Assembly: GCA_044226015.1 (NCBI GenBank)
Contig: JBGAHS010000010.1
Coordinates: 348,793-412,792, forward strand
Origin: Candidatus Obscuribacteraceae bacterium
GTDB taxonomy: Bacteria > Cyanobacteriota > Vampirovibrionia > Obscuribacterales > Obscuribacteraceae
DNA length: 64,000 nucleotides
Direction: 5' to 3'
Under the pieces are notes generated by a model. It saw nothing but the letters and a program-made list of their open reading frames with translations, was not told the DNA's origin and searched no databases. The position numbers and the translations under genes are program-made. Shown piece by piece: positions 1 through 49,647 of the stretch; the first letter of the stretch is position 1, and the number at the start of each line of letters is the position of its first letter.

Positions 1-269
1 CCTTGACGGCTCCATCGTCATCGACTCAAGTGTCATGTCCTCGATGTGAAACATGGCTGGAGCTTGAGGCAAGATGCAATGGTGTATGCTTAAGCTGTCA
101 TGCCGTCAAAAAGGCTGAAAACACAGGCAGCTGCGCTGATCTCGGCGAACAGCCGCTGACTCGATTCGATAAATCCAATGAAGCCAATAGTTCCGGCGCA
201 ACAAATACTAAAAATAAAGGGGCTGGTTCGGGACTAAAGGCTCTATTCAAGAAGGTTTTTCATGTATGA
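1..269 (+). CDS. 3' end of a hypothetical protein with a Zn-ribbon-like CxxC...CxxC motif (probably starts before the window)
   Basis: ORF at window edge; CPRC-x12-CLSC plus an extra Cys; amphipathic C-terminus GLKALFKKVF. Confidence 0.5.
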   Translation, partial: LTAPSSSTQVSCPRCETWLELEARCNGVCLSCHAVKKAENTGSCADLGEQPLTRFDKSNEANSSGATNTKNKGAGSGLKALFKKVFHV

Positions 270-41515: not shown

Positions 41516-42814
41516 TTACGGACTGATTCTAGTTCTGTCTCTCGGAAATAGGGAGGCTTCACGAACGTTTTTTAGATTGAGTAGTTGTTTCGCGAGACGT
41601 TCTAATCCTATGGCTAAACCGCCATGAGCAGGCATTCCGTACTTGAAACATTGCAGATAGTCGGTGAAACTTTCCACCTGCATTCCTCTCGATTCGATAG
41701 AGCCACATAGCTGCTCATAGTTGTGAATTCGTTGTCCTCCGGTCGTGATTTCCAAGCCACGGAAAAGTAAGTCGAAGCTGTGGCTAGCTGCAGTTCCTTG
41801 TTCAGGCATTGCATAGAATGGACGAACACCCCATGGATAATGCGTGAGGTAAACGAATTCGCAGGCTTCTGTTTTTTCCATGTACTCGCAGAGCAGTCTC
41901 TCAGCTTCTGGGTCGAGGTCTTCGCCCTCGCCTTTCCATCCCATTTTGCTGTGCAGAATTTCCGCTGCTTCAGAGAGCTTTAGCTGCGGAATAAACTCAA
42001 ATCTTGGAACTTTCGCTCCAAATAGTTCAAGTTCGGCTTTGCAGTTTTCCGAGAGCGATTGAAGCATGTGTTTCAGCAATTTCATTTGCATATTGATGAC
42101 GGTTTGTTCGCTTTCGATAAAGCCCATCTCAAAGTCCATGCTTACATATTCATTCAAATGCCTCGAAGTGCTGTGCTCTTCAGCGCGATAGACAGGTCCG
42201 ATCTCAAAAACTCTTTCGAATACACCCACCATTATTTGTTTATAGAACTGAGGGCTCTGCGCCAGGTAAGCCGTGCGTCCGAAATAATCGATGCTGAACA
42301 GCGAAGCACCGCCTTCGGTGCCAGTTGCGACGATTTTGGGCGAGTGAATTTCAGTAAATCCTTCGCTATTCAGGAATTCTCGAAATGACCGGCAAAGCTC
42401 TGCTTCTATCTTGAAAATAGAGCGAATCTTGTTATTTCGAAGCGTTAATGGTCGATATTCTAAAAGTGCATTTAGAGAAAGTGATTCCATTTTTTTCTCA
42501 CGAGAGATTTCGACAGGTAGATTACCTTCGCTTGTTGCAGAGAGTATTTCGAGCCCGGTTGCATGCAACTCAAGTTCTTCGGGCTTTCGTTCAATCGGAC
42601 GCAAAACGCCATTTACTTTAACCACAGACTCGGGATTCAAAACTGCGGCTTGCTCGACAAGGTCTGGACGCTCGACAACAACTTGAGTGAGCCCATTTCT
42701 GTTTCTAACAAGCAGAAAAACGAGCGCACCAAAACGTCGTACTGCATAGATTTGCCCAGTAATCGTTTCTGTCTTGGCGTTAAAGCAGCCGCCACCCTGA
42801 ATACCTGGTTCCAT
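41516..42814 (-). CDS. aspS: Aspartate--tRNA(Asp/Asn) ligase, short archaeal/eukaryotic type, probably non-discriminating
   Basis: 432 aa with no GAD insert; YLAQSPQFYKQ, VYRAEEHSTSRHLNE, EITTGGQR, PAHGGLAIGLERL; Pro in the short L1 loop (ERKPEE) as in ND enzymes. Confidence 0.9.
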   Translation of the reverse strand: MEPGIQGGGCFNAKTETITGQIYAVRRFGALVFLLVRNRNGLTQVVVERPDLVEQAAVLNPESVVKVNGVLRPIERKPEELELHATGLEILSATSEGNLPVEISREKKMESLSLNALLEYRPLTLRNNKIRSIFKIEAELCRSFREFLNSEGFTEIHSPKIVATGTEGGASLFSIDYFGRTAYLAQSPQFYKQIMVGVFERVFEIGPVYRAEEHSTSRHLNEYVSMDFEMGFIESEQTVINMQMKLLKHMLQSLSENCKAELELFGAKVPRFEFIPQLKLSEAAEILHSKMGWKGEGEDLDPEAERLLCEYMEKTEACEFVYLTHYPWGVRPFYAMPEQGTAASHSFDLLFRGLEITTGGQRIHNYEQLCGSIESRGMQVESFTDYLQCFKYGMPAHGGLAIGLERLAKQLLNLKNVREASLFPRDRTRISP

Positions 42815-42826
42815 AAAAAATACTCC

Positions 42827-42866
42827 AAACGAAGAGAGGTCCGCCCTTTCTGCTGGCGGACCTCTC
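42827..42866 (-). terminator. Attenuator terminator hairpin upstream of aspS
   Basis: 12-bp stem GAGAGGTCCGCC/GGCGGACCTCTC followed by TTCGTTT, just before the aspS RBS (GGAG). Confidence 0.75.
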
Positions 42867-42889
42867 GGAACTTTTCTCTTTTTATCTAC

Positions 42890-43027
42890 TTAACGATAAT
42901 CGAGAGACCACCAGCGAATTCTTCTAGCGTCGTCATTATTATCGTCATTATTATTGTTGGCAGAAAATGGCTCAGCGCTGCGTGCGTTGAGGCGATTATT
43001 GATTGATAGTGTCTCCACCAATTTCAC
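42890..43027 (-). CDS. Asn/Asp-rich leader peptide of aspS (45 aa; not in ORF track)
   Basis: GGAG-7nt-GTG; MKLVETLSINNRLNARSAEPFSANNNNDDNNDDARRIRWWSLDYR*; ten consecutive Asn/Asp codons at 42929-42958. Confidence 0.82.
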   Translation of the reverse strand: MKLVETLSINNRLNARSAEPFSANNNNDDNNDDARRIRWWSLDYR

Positions 43028-43052
43028 TTATCTGCTCCATGAACTTGAGAAC

Positions 43053-43081
43053 ATGCTAGAACCGGGACTGAAAACAGTCAA
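43053..43081 (-). promoter_or_regulatory. Sigma70-type promoter for leader peptide-aspS
   Basis: TTGACT-17 nt-TAGCAT on the minus strand. Confidence 0.65.
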
Positions 43082-43163: not shown

Positions 43164-45239
43164 TCACGGTGACGTATCAAGTTTATCGGCGTCTTTGTCT
43201 AGAGTTGCTTCTAGTTTCTTCACTTCTATCTTGAGCTTATTCGCCTTTTCCGTATATTCGGGGCGTTCGTAGAGATCGTAGGTGAGAATCATGCCATTCA
43301 ATGCATCTCTAAGAGTCTCTTTGTCGTCAGGGAGGTGCTCTCTCGTCCAAGAAAGTGCTTGCTCAATTTCATCTCTTGCGTGGTTAAACTGAGGCAACTG
43401 TGAGTTTTCATTTCTGTCCAATTGCCCTAGTGCGAGCACTGCTTGAATTTTCATCTTCCAGGCTTCTTTGCTATCTGGGTTCTTTGGGCAGGCCGCGATT
43501 GCTTCTTTGAGCACTCGTCGTTGATCACTTCCTCTTCCTTGCCCACGAAAGCATTCTGCAAGTGAAAGCCTGAATCTTACGGTCGATCGCCAGTCTCTTA
43601 TTTCCATTTTGTCGAAAACTGCGATTGCTTTTTTGAGCAACAATTCTTGCCGTTCGACTGATCTAATGGATAGCTTATCCGCGCATCGGGCTATTATGTC
43701 TGAAAATGCTGCTGCTTGTTGCGCCCTCTCTTCGCTGTCGGTGCGGCTTGCGGGAACTGTTTGCCAGGATTTCAAAAGTTCCATAAGATTGTCATATTCA
43801 CTGTATACCTTTTCTGTAGAAAGGTGTGACAGTGCCTTGTTCGCCTCTTCTTGATCTGAATAGCGACGGGCCTTTCCATACGCATTGCTTAGCTTCTTCA
43901 AAGTTGTTTCTAGCCGACTTTTATTATCGCCAAATTTTTCAGCAAGTTTTTTTGCCTCTTCTAATTCCTTTATGGCATCGTTGTACTGTTTGTCGCGTAT
44001 GAGGTCATCAGAAACAGTGAGGTGCCGTTGCCAGAGCATCTTGCTAAATAATGTTCCAGAGTCTCCTTCGGGTCCGTTAAATAGAAATAGCCACCACGCT
44101 GAAACTGCAATGAGAAGCATCGTTGTTGTTGCTACAGAAACAGTCAATATAATTTTGAGCTGTCGCTGCTGCTTAGTTTCGCCGCTCTCCTTTACTCCGG
44201 CAAATTCATGAGATCCTGTGTTGCTTCCGGTAGCGTTGGGCAGAGGCTGTGCAAGTTTCACATTGTCAGCTATCGCTGCGTCAACTAACGCAAGTTTCAA
44301 TTCTTTGACTGATTGATATCGGTCTTCAGGATTTTTTTCCAGGCACTTCAAAATGACCGCCTCTATATGCGGTGGCACGTTGAGGTTGTTTGTCTTCTCT
44401 GCAAATGGTTTAGGTTTTTCGCTAATATGTTTGACGACCGTATTAATAAACGTGTCGCCAACCAGCGGTGGCTCTCCTGCAAGTGCTTCGTACATCAGGC
44501 AACCGAAGGAGTAAATGTCTGAGCGCTCGTCAACTTTGCCGCCATTGCATTGCTCAGGACTCATGTAAGCAGGTGTACCGAAAATTTCACCCGCTTGTGT
44601 CAGTTGCTGCGGTTTTTCACCCTCTGTAATTTTCATAACCTTAGCGATGCCGAAGTCCACAAGTTTGACCAGGTCGCTTCCGTCTTTTTGCTGGCTGATC
44701 ACTAAATTAGAAGGCTTGATGTCGCGATGAACAATTCCCTCACCATGTGCATCTTCCAGTCCTTCGCAAGCCTGAAGAAAATAATCGATTCCTTGTGCAA
44801 CCGGCAAACGTACCTTGTCTTCAAGAAGTTCTGCCAGGCTTTTGCCCTCCAGGCAATCCATAACAAAATAGGCTTGCCCATTGTGAGTGAAGCCAAAATC
44901 GTAGACTCCGACTACATTTCTGTGAGAGAGTGCGCTGGATGCTTCTGCTTCTTGTTGGAACCTTGCTTTCGCTGCGGGATCTCTTGTTGCCGATTCGTGC
45001 AATATTTTTATTGCGACTATACGTTTCATAAATTTGTGGCGAGCTTTATACACCCGGCTCATGCCACCCTCACCCAAAAGAGAGAGGATTTCGTATTTAT
45101 CTGCAAAGACTGTGCCGATTAATTTATCTGGTTTTGCATGTACGAGAACGGAACCATCATCGGGACATTCGATGGTTTCTGGAGGAAATTCTTTATCGCA
45201 CTGTGGGCACAATCCATTCCCACTGTTGTTATCCGACAC
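43164..45239 (-). CDS. Hanks-type Ser/Thr protein kinase with N-terminal Zn-ribbon-like motif, TM helix and helical/TPR-like C-terminal domain
   Basis: LGEGGMSRVY, VAIK, HRDIKPSN, DFG, GTPAYMSPEQ; CPQC..CPDD; TM near residue 365-385. Confidence 0.95.
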   Translation of the reverse strand: MSDNNSGNGLCPQCDKEFPPETIECPDDGSVLVHAKPDKLIGTVFADKYEILSLLGEGGMSRVYKARHKFMKRIVAIKILHESATRDPAAKARFQQEAEASSALSHRNVVGVYDFGFTHNGQAYFVMDCLEGKSLAELLEDKVRLPVAQGIDYFLQACEGLEDAHGEGIVHRDIKPSNLVISQQKDGSDLVKLVDFGIAKVMKITEGEKPQQLTQAGEIFGTPAYMSPEQCNGGKVDERSDIYSFGCLMYEALAGEPPLVGDTFINTVVKHISEKPKPFAEKTNNLNVPPHIEAVILKCLEKNPEDRYQSVKELKLALVDAAIADNVKLAQPLPNATGSNTGSHEFAGVKESGETKQQRQLKIILTVSVATTTMLLIAVSAWWLFLFNGPEGDSGTLFSKMLWQRHLTVSDDLIRDKQYNDAIKELEEAKKLAEKFGDNKSRLETTLKKLSNAYGKARRYSDQEEANKALSHLSTEKVYSEYDNLMELLKSWQTVPASRTDSEERAQQAAAFSDIIARCADKLSIRSVERQELLLKKAIAVFDKMEIRDWRSTVRFRLSLAECFRGQGRGSDQRRVLKEAIAACPKNPDSKEAWKMKIQAVLALGQLDRNENSQLPQFNHARDEIEQALSWTREHLPDDKETLRDALNGMILTYDLYERPEYTEKANKLKIEVKKLEATLDKDADKLDTSP

Positions 45240-45436: not shown

Positions 45437-46582
45437 CTAACCGGCAAGATCGGCAAATCTTGTGTACCAGTCTCCAGCTTCGCGACAAACTAACCCGGCT
45501 AGCTCTAACATAGTGAGCGTTGCCGATAGTTCACCTGCTTCCATTTCTGTTTGTTCGCACAGGGTGTCGAAATGAACGCGCTCTTGAGAGATTAGATCAT
45601 ATACCTCTCGCTCACGACCATAAAGTTGCACCACAGCAGCTTTTTCACGCTCAGGGCCACCTCTGGTCTTCGCCCAATTCATTGCAGTAAGTATGTCTTC
45701 AAAGCTGGTGCAGAGTTGAGCTTTTCCTTCTAATATCAGACGATTTGGTCCCTTTGACATTTCACTATCGACCCGTCCGGGAAATGCAAACAGCTCACGA
45801 TTTTGCTCGAACGCCAAGCGCCCGGTTATCAGGGATCCCGAAGTCAATTTTCCTTCAACGACAACTAGAGCCTGGCTGAGTCCGGCAATGATTCTATTTC
45901 TTGCTGGAAATCTGAATGGTTCTGGCTGTGTACCGGGAAAGTACTCTGAAATGATTGCTCCTTTTTCTTCGGACAATATTTGCTCATATAGATTTTGGTT
46001 GGCGGGAGGATAACAAATATCTGCACCGCATCCTAAAACAGCAATTGTGGGTGAGCCGCCACTGATTGCTCCCCTGTGCGCCAGTGCATCGCACCCGAGT
46101 GCAAGACCGCTCACAATTGTCACCCCATGGGCCGAAAGACCTTCAGCCACGTCAAATGCCAGCTTCTTTCCATAGGGTGTTGGGTAGCGAGTTCCTACAA
46201 TACCAACAACATGGTTCATTGCCTCTGGTTCTAGCTTTCCCGCCACAAATAGGATAATCGGAGCATCATGAATATGACGCAGCCTGAGGGGATAGTGTGG
46301 GTCTTTCCATGTCCAGGCTTGGAATCCTGAGTTCCTTAAGCGCTCCAAAAGTTTGTAGGGATCAATTTCTCGCTGCGCCTTTAGCAAAGTGGCTACGCGC
46401 TCGGTACCAAGTCCCTTGATTCTTTCAAGAACCCGTTCTGGCGCATTCCAGGCTGTTTTCAGGCTCTGCAGCTGCTCATCGAGCCTTGCGATTCTGGCTG
46501 GTCCAAATCCATTCAGCTCATTAAACGCCAACCAGTGAGCCAGCTCGTCCTCGCTAAGTCCATCTTGGTTCTCTTCTGGCAC
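45437..46582 (-). CDS. dprA: DNA-processing protein DprA (Smf)
   Basis: IVGTR, IVSGLALGCD, FPARNRIIAGLS, SGSLIT, C-terminal LTMLELAG. Confidence 0.96.
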   Translation of the reverse strand: MPEENQDGLSEDELAHWLAFNELNGFGPARIARLDEQLQSLKTAWNAPERVLERIKGLGTERVATLLKAQREIDPYKLLERLRNSGFQAWTWKDPHYPLRLRHIHDAPIILFVAGKLEPEAMNHVVGIVGTRYPTPYGKKLAFDVAEGLSAHGVTIVSGLALGCDALAHRGAISGGSPTIAVLGCGADICYPPANQNLYEQILSEEKGAIISEYFPGTQPEPFRFPARNRIIAGLSQALVVVEGKLTSGSLITGRLAFEQNRELFAFPGRVDSEMSKGPNRLILEGKAQLCTSFEDILTAMNWAKTRGGPEREKAAVVQLYGREREVYDLISQERVHFDTLCEQTEMEAGELSATLTMLELAGLVCREAGDWYTRFADLAG

Positions 46583-46765: not shown

Positions 46766-47512
46766 TTGAAAATACGTACTTTTCTAATGTCAGCAGGAAA
46801 GCCGCTTACTATCAGCTTTTTCGCATATTTTTTCGGGTTTTTCTTACCGATGTCTACACCTGCGTTCGCGCAAGAAGGTGCTTTGGCACAAGGACATCCA
46901 ATTCCTAGATTTGCGCTGTCGGCAAGTCACCAGGACAACATAAGTCCTCCGGCAAGCAGTATGCCAAAAAGCAATTCAATGCCATGGGTTAGTTCCAGCA
47001 TTGGTGGCGCTCCAGCTATGATGCCGATGCAGGGTCGCACCGCTCAAAGCAGACCAATTGCGGCATTGCCGATGATTCCGCCTCCGGCAGCGAGTGAAGA
47101 CCGACCGAATTCCTACATGGAGGAATACCAGGTGAGTTGGTCTCCCTGGATACAGAATTTAGCCAATCGGTGGCACCGAGTACTTAAGGATAGCGAAGAG
47201 TTACTTGGTGTTGAATTTCAGACTGCAAGGCCAGCACTAATTCAGTTCACCTGCTATGCTGATGGACGTATAGGTAATGTGGTGTTGAGGCAAAGCTCTG
47301 GTGTACCTGTTTACGACAAAATGCAAGTTCTGTCGTTAATGGAAGTGGCTCCACTGGAACCGTTTCCGCAAGGAACTCAGAAACGCAGTATTACTCTGAT
47401 TCAGGGCTGGGAATCGCATCTCAAGCAACCTGGAGAACAGGAATTCAACACACGTGCTTTTGCCAATCGCTATCCGCTGGAGAAAGTAAACCGATGGATT
47501 TCCAAGCAATAA
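46766..47512 (+). CDS. Exported protein with TonB/TolA C-terminal-like domain
   Basis: Signal peptide; FTCYADGRIGNVVLRQSSG..YD....APLEPFP. Confidence 0.75.
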   Translation: MKIRTFLMSAGKPLTISFFAYFFGFFLPMSTPAFAQEGALAQGHPIPRFALSASHQDNISPPASSMPKSNSMPWVSSSIGGAPAMMPMQGRTAQSRPIAALPMIPPPAASEDRPNSYMEEYQVSWSPWIQNLANRWHRVLKDSEELLGVEFQTARPALIQFTCYADGRIGNVVLRQSSGVPVYDKMQVLSLMEVAPLEPFPQGTQKRSITLIQGWESHLKQPGEQEFNTRAFANRYPLEKVNRWISKQ

Positions 47513-49647
47513 GAGTCTCGCTAAAGAGAAAACTTATTGTTGCTTTTTCGATTTCTTTGCTCGCTGGAACCTTTGCATACGCAGGCTATATCCCCGACGC
47601 ATCCTGCGCAACCAGTAATGCGCAGACTCTGGAAAAACTTGAGAACTGGCTGTTTTTTGCCACCTTTCCAACTGAAAGCGATGAAGACAGAATAAAGCGG
47701 TTGGAAGAGCGCACTTTTGGGGAAGCCTCTTCCGGCGATATTTCTGAGCGCTTGAAAAAATTGGATGAGCTTCTTTCTGAAAGGCAAAAAGAGAAGGAAG
47801 CTGCAAATCCACCACCGTCATCATCTCCATCTTCTTCTAGTGCGGAGAAGACTCCGGCTGCTCAACCTGACACTGCTCCTGACCCAGCTAGAGAAGCTGA
47901 GTTAGCAAAAGAACGCGAGCGAATTCGAGTGCAGGCTGCGCGTGAAAGAGAAATGGAAGATCTGCTACGAGAGGCTTCTAAGCTATTTCGCGCACACCGA
48001 CAACAAGAAGCGCTTGAGCAGTTCGAACAGGTTTTGCGTTTAGACCCGCAAAATGCAGAAGCGAATTTCAGTATAGGTATTATAAAAGAATCGCAAGGCA
48101 AGCTGAAAGAAGCAAAACAACACTATTCAATTGCATCACAGAAGGATCCTGGTAATAAAGATTATACCGATGCAATCGCTGCAGTGACTAAACGAATAAA
48201 TACAGTTGACCCTTCGAAAGCGTTAGAAGACAAAGCGACACAGGCGTTTAAGAACGCCGATTATATAACAGCGGTGAATCTGTTCAAACAGATTGATGAT
48301 AAGAATCCGAAGCAAGCAAACATCAAATATGGGTTGGGAACAACTTATTTGATGATGAAGAACTATTTCAACGCGCTTGAGAATTTTAAAATCGCTTATC
48401 AGCTCGAGCCAAACAATGAGAAGTACGCTAAAGCATTCAACGAGTTGTCTGCTGAGATGTCCAAGCATCAGGCTGAACAGCAGGCGATCGAAACTCAATA
48501 CAATGGCGGCGGAACTAATGCCACCGGTGCTGGTGGTGGTGTTATGGGGGGGGCTATGACCCAACCCGGCATGAGAATGCCGGCGCAAGGAAGTAGGCCG
48601 CCGCTGGGATATCAGAACCAGGGCATGCAACAGCGACCGATGCAGTCAAATATGCAGCAGCCTATGCTGCAACAAAATATGCAGCAGCGACCGATGCAAG
48701 GCATGGGAAATTATAACCCCCAAATGCAACAAGGCTATGGGAACTATCCTCAGCAGCAAGCCATGCGTCCGAACCCGCAGATGTCGCAACAAGGAAACTA
48801 CTCGGGAGGCTCTAGTTCTGGAACCTACATACCTCCTGACCCGCAGCTCTACAGCACCAAGCAGAATAAGGAGTCTCCAAAAGCATCAAAGGCTGCTAAA
48901 GGAAAGAAGCCTGAAACCCAAGCTGCTGGCGGAACACAAGGCGGCGCTGGTGGACAGCAAGGCGGATATGGTGGCGGCCAGCAAGGCGGATATGGTGGCG
49001 GCCAGCAAGGCGGATATGGTGGCGGCCAGCAAGGCGGATATGGCGGCGGGCAGCAAGGCGGCTATGGTGGCGGTCAGCAAGGCGGATATGGTGTCGGCCA
49101 GCAAGGCGGATATGGTGGCAGTCAGCAAACCGGATATGGTGGCGGACAGCAAGGCGGATATGGTGGCGGACAGCAAACCGGATATGGTGGCGGACAGCAA
49201 ACCGGATATGGTGGCGGACAGCAAACCGGATATGGTGGCAGTCAGCAAACCGGATATGGTGGCGGTCAACAGGGTGGAAACGGTGGCGGTCAGATGGGAA
49301 TGAACCCCAACTATGCACCTCCTCCACAATCTGCACCGCAAGGTGCCTTCGACCCGAAGCTCGCTCAACGGTTGAACAGCGCTTCCTCAGGTGGACAGGT
49401 TGACCCCATGAGCAACTATGGACTCTCTGGCAAAGCCAGTGAAGAAGGTGTTATGGTCACCGGAATACGCTCGGGAACGCGTGCGGCCAGAAGCGGACTT
49501 AAGAAAGGCGATGTGATTAGAACTGTTGATGGTAATGAAGTGATGCAGCCGGATCAACTTAACCAGGTGCTATCACAATATGGTGAGGGGCAGACCTTGC
49601 CTATCCTTATTTTCAGAGAAGGAAATCTTACTCCGATTCAGTTTTAA
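47494..49647 (+). CDS. Exported TPR protein with Gln/Gly/Tyr low-complexity region and C-terminal PDZ domain
   Basis: Signal peptide; TPR units; GVMVTGIRSGTRAARSGLKKGDVI..VDG PDZ motif. Confidence 0.85.
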   Translation: MDFQAIRVSLKRKLIVAFSISLLAGTFAYAGYIPDASCATSNAQTLEKLENWLFFATFPTESDEDRIKRLEERTFGEASSGDISERLKKLDELLSERQKEKEAANPPPSSSPSSSSAEKTPAAQPDTAPDPAREAELAKERERIRVQAAREREMEDLLREASKLFRAHRQQEALEQFEQVLRLDPQNAEANFSIGIIKESQGKLKEAKQHYSIASQKDPGNKDYTDAIAAVTKRINTVDPSKALEDKATQAFKNADYITAVNLFKQIDDKNPKQANIKYGLGTTYLMMKNYFNALENFKIAYQLEPNNEKYAKAFNELSAEMSKHQAEQQAIETQYNGGGTNATGAGGGVMGGAMTQPGMRMPAQGSRPPLGYQNQGMQQRPMQSNMQQPMLQQNMQQRPMQGMGNYNPQMQQGYGNYPQQQAMRPNPQMSQQGNYSGGSSSGTYIPPDPQLYSTKQNKESPKASKAAKGKKPETQAAGGTQGGAGGQQGGYGGGQQGGYGGGQQGGYGGGQQGGYGGGQQGGYGGGQQGGYGVGQQGGYGGSQQTGYGGGQQGGYGGGQQTGYGGGQQTGYGGGQQTGYGGSQQTGYGGGQQGGNGGGQMGMNPNYAPPPQSAPQGAFDPKLAQRLNSASSGGQVDPMSNYGLSGKASEEGVMVTGIRSGTRAARSGLKKGDVIRTVDGNEVMQPDQLNQVLSQYGEGQTLPILIFREGNLTPIQF
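48949..49284 (+). repeat. 24-bp coding tandem repeat x14 encoding GGQQGGYG/GGQQTGYG
   Basis: Counted directly in DNA and translation. Confidence 0.92.

Follow-up and report, generated by a model that had tools for sequence, protein, structure and literature searches.

The aspS2 gene and its leader region

The window analysed here, a stretch of 64,000 nt, covers positions 348,793 to 412,792 of contig JBGAHS010000010.1 (assembly GCA_044226015.1), and the locus under study lies on its minus strand. The gene at 41516..42814 (ATG at 42814) was identified by profiles as aspS2, encoding an archaeal-type aspartate--tRNA(Asn) ligase (AspRS2) of 432 aa. Its product passes both of the profile models for aspartate--tRNA(Asn) ligases, NF003483 (537 bits, cut-off 353) and TIGR00458 (415 bits, cut-off 368), which agrees with the first-pass annotation of a non-discriminating AspRS. 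The best PDB match is 1n9w/3kfu, named AspRS2 or non-discriminating archaeal-type (E 5e-118).

Upstream of aspS2, a motif match to a sigma70-type promoter (TTGACT-17-TAGCAT, 43053..43081) is followed by a Shine-Dalgarno sequence (GGAG, 43035..43038) and a leader ORF of 45 aa without a Pfam match, running from GTG at 43027 to TAA at 42890 (42890..43027). The promoter is the only minus-strand match upstream of the leader; the region has 3 matches vs 1.1 in shuffles. Leader codons 24–33 (42929..42958) are translated as NNNNDDNNDD and constitute the control codons, or N/D run. Three helices follow. The 1:2 hairpin (protector or pause) is a predicted fold at 42891..42947, with an outer protector helix of 10 bp, including one G-U, between 42947-38 and 42900-891, and an inner part in which 42934-24 is predicted to pair straight with the antiterminator strand 42914-04. 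The antiterminator, or 2:3 helix (42852..42915), identified by covariation and a duplex test, pairs 42915-42901 with 42867-42852 in 15 bp with two G-U and one bulge. The intrinsic terminator, or 3:4 helix, identified from its fold and the alignment, occupies 42827..42866 together with the U-tract TTCGTTT, and has a 12-bp stem (42866-55/42845-34), a 9-nt loop and an energy of -24.3 kcal/mol. A consensus scan missed this terminator because it permits loops of 3-8 nt only. The Shine-Dalgarno sequence of aspS2 (GGAG) is located at 42823..42826. The promoter, ribosome-binding site, 45-aa ORF, N/D run and three helices had all been proposed in the first-pass annotation, and each was recovered base by base where it had been placed.

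Asn and Asp together account for 10.0% of codons in the 2,285 long ORFs of the genome, which gives p^10 of about 1e-10 and sets the ten-codon run far outside chance expectation. A genome-wide scan for a leader ORF with a run, a hairpin and a following gene returned 92 rows, among which the source leader is the sole N/D case. The remaining 10 of the 11 N/D runs of at least 7 codons in the genome are located inside open frames of at least 80 codons, mostly in long proteins. An assembly artefact is excluded, since the whole 801-nt stretch is covered by a contig from a separate study that differs by one substitution and one inserted nucleotide; a 253-nt contig from a third study matches the stretch exactly.

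The gene neighbourhood varies among close relatives. A Ser/Thr kinase gene (window 43164-45239) sits between the leader and a gene at 45437-46582 that we take to be dprA-like. In five relatives of the same genus the end of the dprA-like gene directly precedes the leader promoter, and the kinase gene therefore looks inserted at the source locus. Further along, the plus strand encodes a 717-aa protein with many GGGQQGGY-type repeats (window 47494-49647).

AspRS2 among the tRNA-charging enzymes of the genome

The source genome (92% complete) also encodes AsnRS, GlnRS, GatA, GatB and a bacterial-type AspRS; the presence of asnS and gatCAB had been left as a point to check in the first-pass annotation, and AsnRS, GatA and GatB were found. 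As GlnRS is present, GatCAB is free for Asn. With this set of enzymes available, AspRS2 is taken as auxiliary, not as the main supplier of either tRNA pool. AsnRS was found in 53 of 61 family genomes, and an AsnB-type gene scores above cut-off in the source genome and in 57 of the 61, so the AspRS2-GatCAB pathway need not be the sole source of Asn; the idea that it is the only one is unsupported. The neighbours of the AsnB-type gene are signalling genes and uninformative on its substrate. AsnA was not found in the source genome. Both tRNA-Asn genes of the genome have U1-A72; the second, divergent one belongs to a tRNA array at positions 357175-357827 of contig C10.

AspRS2 is probably non-discriminating, judging from its sequence. 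At two positions regarded as determinants of this property in archaeal-type AspRS, a His of the anticodon domain and a Pro of the L1 loop, the source enzyme has the L1-loop Pro and a Tyr in place of His. Among 40 rows of its clade the presumed His column is Q17/Y11/H8 and the loop is variable; a literature search found no paper against which to check the two positions.

Conservation of the leader

An aspS2 orthologue is present in 30 of the 61 genomes searched (source included, all of one family). The N/D run occurs at all 29 of the family loci with upstream DNA, 27 of them having at least 6 of 10 N/D codons and two having 5, and the hairpin is likewise present in 29/29. To these we added the best 80 named loci from a scan of part of the collection, 18 of them within the clade and 17 of those with upstream DNA. 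All 17 carry the run, and a script found a good terminator in 15; after removal of four duplicates they contribute 13 additional distinct loci, for a total of 42/42 distinct in-clade loci with upstream DNA. By contrast, none of the 60 out-of-clade orthologues with upstream DNA among the best 80 reaches 6/10 N/D codons within 450 nt. Eighteen out-of-clade orthologues were given to Rfam, and 7 of them, including several Clostridia, have a T-box upstream. Besides the four duplicates, L026, L069, L096 and L111 were left out as having no upstream DNA, and L028 was left out of the tree for its internal stop.

A quick tree of 105 proteins places the source AspRS2 in a 43-row clade with a support of 99, together with records named Obscuribacterales or Melainabacteria, the closest named relatives. 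Two records titled Flavobacterium and Proteobacteria (L067, L068) fall within the Obscuribacterales aspS2 clade and have typical leaders; they are probably mislabelled bins. At L028 (contig C5 of genome G016) the leader is intact and aspS2 has an internal TGA, either an error or a recent pseudogene.

Other parts of the leader recur as well. A promoter-like motif TTGAC-16..18-TAnnnT lies upstream of 27 of 29 leaders vs 11.6% of shuffled controls. An in-frame start with a Shine-Dalgarno-like word was found by script in 16/29 leaders and in none of the other 13. The distance from the end of the run to the terminator loop is 56-91 nt in the 29 family loci (median 70).

Covariation and pairing of the alternative helices

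Covariation was scored on a MAFFT alignment fitted to no structure; kin are not independent, and the figures that follow are not probabilities. In the antiterminator 83.5% of cells are paired, compared with 21-51% in slid registers. Its 26 cells changed on both sides, for example from U-A to G-C in eight sequences, were matched by none of 500 shuffles. The number of antiterminator pairs with a two-sided change (5/9) does not rise above the shuffles (144/500). The terminator has 87.9% of its cells paired and 8 of its 11 pairs changed on both sides, with a covariation score lowered by the misalignment of the source row in the 3' arm in alignment A1.

The duplex of segments 2 and 3 was also compared with permuted partners: its mean energy is -17.7 kcal/mol with a locus's own partner vs -13.7 with permuted ones (0/20,000), and -16.9 vs -13.9 kcal/mol when one locus per genus is kept (n=22). 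The duplex beats an upstream control segment in 29/29 loci, and in 27/29 it beats all but at most 10 of 200 shuffles, the exceptions being L020 and L027. As the 2:3 and 3:4 hairpins both use segment 3, they are mutually exclusive, and both covary. The 1:2 fold is predicted in most family loci. The WW codons of the genus leaders were considered as a Trp-sensing element and rejected: they lie inside segment 2, read CGG in most other genera, and are best seen as a by-product of segment 2 pairing.

Ribosome position and the proposed switch

Nascent RNA reaching as far as the terminator loop was folded after removal of the stretch covered by a ribosome. In these in silico folds segment 3 is sequestered with a mean P of 0.75 when the ribosome stands mid-run vs 0.15 when it stands at the stop codon, and the value is higher mid-run in 29/29 loci. 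With a footprint of 9-15 nt, every one of the ten control codons in the source leader is permissive; in the family, 207 of the 224 N/D codons are so at 12 nt. The attenuator architecture proposed in the first-pass annotation holds up across the relatives: the N/D run is conserved upstream of their aspS2 genes, the stems covary in the alignments, and the ribosome geometry fits in the masking folds.

The role ascribed to the protector fares differently. The 10-bp helix is there, as part of a hairpin longer than had been described, but at equilibrium it fails to keep the antiterminator from forming. Even with no ribosome on the RNA the antiterminator prevails, with P 0.91 at the source locus and a mean of 0.69, and falls under 0.3 in only 1 of 29 loci. 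The folds therefore suggest that the 1:2 hairpin is no thermodynamic lock, and that any protector role would have to be kinetic, as a pause or a trap. The antiterminator must act kinetically too, since the full-length RNA is more stable when folded as the terminator (-39.3 vs -28.2 kcal/mol at the source locus). In six loci the refolding barriers were estimated at 6.6 to 16.3 kcal/mol; for the passage from antiterminator to terminator, three of the six have low estimates (2.4-5.8). At the source locus the estimates are 15 and 17 kcal/mol, some relatives having lower values.

The observed features are a promoter motif, a leader ORF with its N/D run, two helices that covary and exclude each other, a U-tract and a conserved spacing. 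From them we consider it likely that the aspS2 leader is a ribosome-mediated transcription attenuator, which would turn on an auxiliary, probably non-discriminating AspRS when charged tRNA-Asn, and likely tRNA-Asp too, is scarce. With ample charged tRNA the ribosome would get to the leader stop codon and cover segment 2 (42915-01), allowing the 3:4 terminator to form and transcription to end near 42827. If Asn-tRNA-Asn were scarce, the ribosome would stall within the run and mask segment 1; segments 2 and 3 would then pair ahead of the synthesis of segment 4, and the polymerase would read into aspS2. The AspRS2 so produced would supply GatCAB with Asp-tRNA-Asn, opening a second route to Asn-tRNA in addition to that through AsnRS, and would also give extra Asp-tRNA-Asp. 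Such a second route, held in reserve, suggests a reason for keeping both.

Asparagine and aspartate as proposed signals

The first-pass annotation held that the gene senses both of its product pools. For asparagine the codon counts agree: the control codons of the 29 runs comprise 152 N vs 72 D, and the first halves of the runs 95 N vs 11 D. Because N codons prevail and come first, Asn-tRNA is probably the main signal. Sensing of Asp as well would be permitted by the geometry of the modelled stall. These same counts bear on an attenuator that responds to Asn alone, with the Asp codons as structural passengers and the level of Asp-tRNA irrelevant. Asp codons are one base from Asn codons and could have been kept because GAC/GAU pair in the 1:2 hairpin; the D codons do lie inside the predicted 1:2 stem, and a housekeeping AspRS is already in the genome. 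We nevertheless regard an Asn-only sensor as unlikely. In 29/29 leaders at least one D codon is permissive whichever of the footprint lengths is used, and two leaders are mostly D (L010, DRDDDN; L030, NDDDD). By eye, three Clostridial T-box alignments (L074, L080, L081) also seem to carry a GAC (Asp) specifier.

Whichever tRNA is read, the hairpin switch might hide or free the ribosome-binding site of aspS2 instead of ending transcription. With 5 U in 8, the U-tract of the source locus is a weak one, in a strain contig it bears a further change that adds no U, and the Shine-Dalgarno sequence is predicted to be 71% paired in the 3:4 state. Across the loci, however, this sequence lies outside the stem in every case, 7-30 nt downstream, and is predicted to be more than half paired in only 7/29. 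There are at least 5 U in 8 nt in 29/29 loci and at least 6 in 26/29, partly by selection, as a U-rich filter was used to pick the hairpins. Such translational attenuation is in our judgement very improbable.

Still less probable is a leader that senses something other than charging, whether through an arrest peptide, a general slowdown of translation, or queuosine, a modification common to tRNA-Asn and tRNA-Asp. AAT does make up 72% of Asn control codons vs 53% in the genome ORFs, a comparison over loci that are not independent, but GAT is not enriched, and the control codons match the tRNAs of the downstream enzyme. Arrest-peptide leaders of the SecM/ErmCL/TnaC type have a conserved C-terminal peptide motif. 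Here, the peptide outside the run is unconserved, its tails vary from leader to leader, three different frames are used across the antiterminator core, and the strain contig has a natural frameshift just after the run, its leader still stopping before the terminator; an arrest peptide was rejected on these grounds. As for a constitutive leaky terminator behind an incidental or relic low-complexity ORF, for which the internal stop of aspS2 at L028 might be cited, it is barely credible given that the run is conserved in 42/42 loci, the spacing is fixed and compensatory changes span many genera.

Relation to known systems

The mechanism is a textbook one; what is new, within the literature searched, is the Asn/Asp specificity, the target gene and the lineage. 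Classical ribosome-mediated attenuators include trp, his, leu, thr, ilvGMEDA, ilvBN as well as pheA, and the aspS2 leader shares with the scheme in the accessible text of PMC1183508 a leader ORF whose regulatory codons are clustered, segments 1-4, 2:3 and 3:4 hairpins as alternatives, and a U-tract. It differs in its Asn/Asp codons, its length of 45 aa and its GTG start, and also in the target, an aminoacyl-tRNA synthetase, and the host, a member of Obscuribacterales. The leader appears to fit every classical feature tested except the role of the 1:2 hairpin, the stall geometry being an in silico one. Asn and Asp would thereby be added to the amino acids read by classical attenuation.

In the E. 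coli pheM-pheST attenuator, the gene under leader-peptide control encodes a tRNA synthetase. The available part of PMC2965389 describes His leaders that precede hisS paralogues in bacilli, and an exchange of T-box and leader peptide for hisS. The aspS2 leader resembles both in that a leader peptide governs a synthetase, in bacilli a duplicate copy. It differs in the amino acids read and in that its run mixes two of them, matching both tRNAs of a non-discriminating enzyme.

For Clostridium acetobutylicum, Saad reportedly described in 2012 and 2013 the control of aspS2/gatCAB by a T-box. The kind of gene and the logic, a shortage of charged tRNA-Asn/Asp, are the same, whereas the sensor here would be the translating ribosome and not direct tRNA binding; gatA and gatB, moreover, are situated away from aspS2 in the source genome. 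No N/D leader was seen there upstream of asnS, aspS1, gatA, gatB or the AsnB-type gene. The aspS2 leader is not a T-box: Rfam gave no RF00230 match in the source genome or upstream in L013 or L025, and no match of any kind in the whole 64-kb window. The use, for the same gene, of a T-box by Clostridia and of a leader peptide by Obscuribacterales would amount to a clean exchange of sensor.

According to the accessible portion of PMC4206432, Deinococcus/Thermus have the same synthetase set, with the extra AspRS serving tRNA-dependent Asn formation, and in the presence of an Asn synthetase GatCAB may be a vestige. The source family resembles Thermus/Deinococcus (1n9w/3kfu) in having, besides AsnRS, GlnRS, GatCAB and a bacterial AspRS, a second AspRS of the archaeal type, and differs from them in keeping the AsnB-type gene. 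We saw no description of leader-peptide control of the Thermus/Deinococcus AspRS2 genes in the literature searched.

An unexplained Shewanella aspS leader is listed in PMC2659441, where the accessible text does not mention asparagine. We found no Asn/Asp leader-peptide attenuator in the literature, although surveys in subscription journals (Vitreschak 2004, Lopatovskaya 2010) or supplements could hold one. The accessible text of PMC4833913 states that there are no reliable data on attenuation in cyanobacteria; the aspS2 leader would place attenuation in the non-photosynthetic sister lineage of cyanobacteria, where it is undocumented in the literature searched. The element is small and could serve as a reporter of Asn-tRNA.

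Other candidate attenuators of the genome

Cognate leaders with terminators also precede trpE, two DAHP synthase genes and the gene of cystathionine gamma-synthase, all on the minus strand. The Trp leader (FNWWSWSN) and terminator before trpE are located at position 767231 of contig C7. The two DAHP synthase genes (contig C9, 286996; contig C10, 286049) each have apparent tandem attenuators, with YYYYW then WYYSYVY in one and FFFFF then FFSFEFFF in the other; aromatic leaders were seen by eye in 16 of 24 DAHP loci (relatives L169-L191). A Met-rich leader, MTCMTNSMMMMNMPM, and a terminator precede the cystathionine gamma-synthase gene (contig C7, 258320). It is found in 7 of the 8 closest orthologues (relatives L138-L144) and, weaker, in the eighth, and was not seen in the other 22 of 30 cystathionine gamma-synthase loci. 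No Met-codon attenuator was found in the literature searched. Attenuation thus appears routine in the lineage, and the prior probability of the Asn/Asp element rises accordingly.

The terminator core GACCGC...GCGGTC is common to the Asn/Asp, Trp, Tyr and Phe attenuators (L009-L029, L045, L047, L048), which suggests one reused cassette. A pattern search for this core recovered, among 16 rows, the trpE leader only. Among other candidates, a TTTT leader taken for a thrS leader was found to precede an acetate-CoA ligase gene, and leader candidates before metG and two unnamed genes were dropped.

A wider reading, which we put forward tentatively and would not ourselves expect to hold in full, is that Obscuribacterales have a whole undescribed set of ribosome-sensed attenuators, including a true dual Asn/Asp sensor, a Met sensor and tandem Tyr/Phe sensors, and that the Asn/Asp leader may self-limit aspS2. 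Any surplus of Asp-tRNA-Asn escaping GatCAB would decode the Asn codons, so that the stall is lifted and aspS2 turned off, and this self-limitation, if true, would cap mistranslation. The dual sensor, if true, would play for an archaeal-type AspRS2 the part that the T-box has in Clostridia, and the set of attenuators would imply tight coupling of transcription and translation within the phylum Cyanobacteriota.

One further candidate precedes ileS (contig C5, 201402, minus strand): a possible Ile/Val leader, VRLVVSIAIISN, with a terminator and a competing helix. This Ile-rich leader is weaker than those of trpE, the DAHP synthases and cystathionine gamma-synthase.
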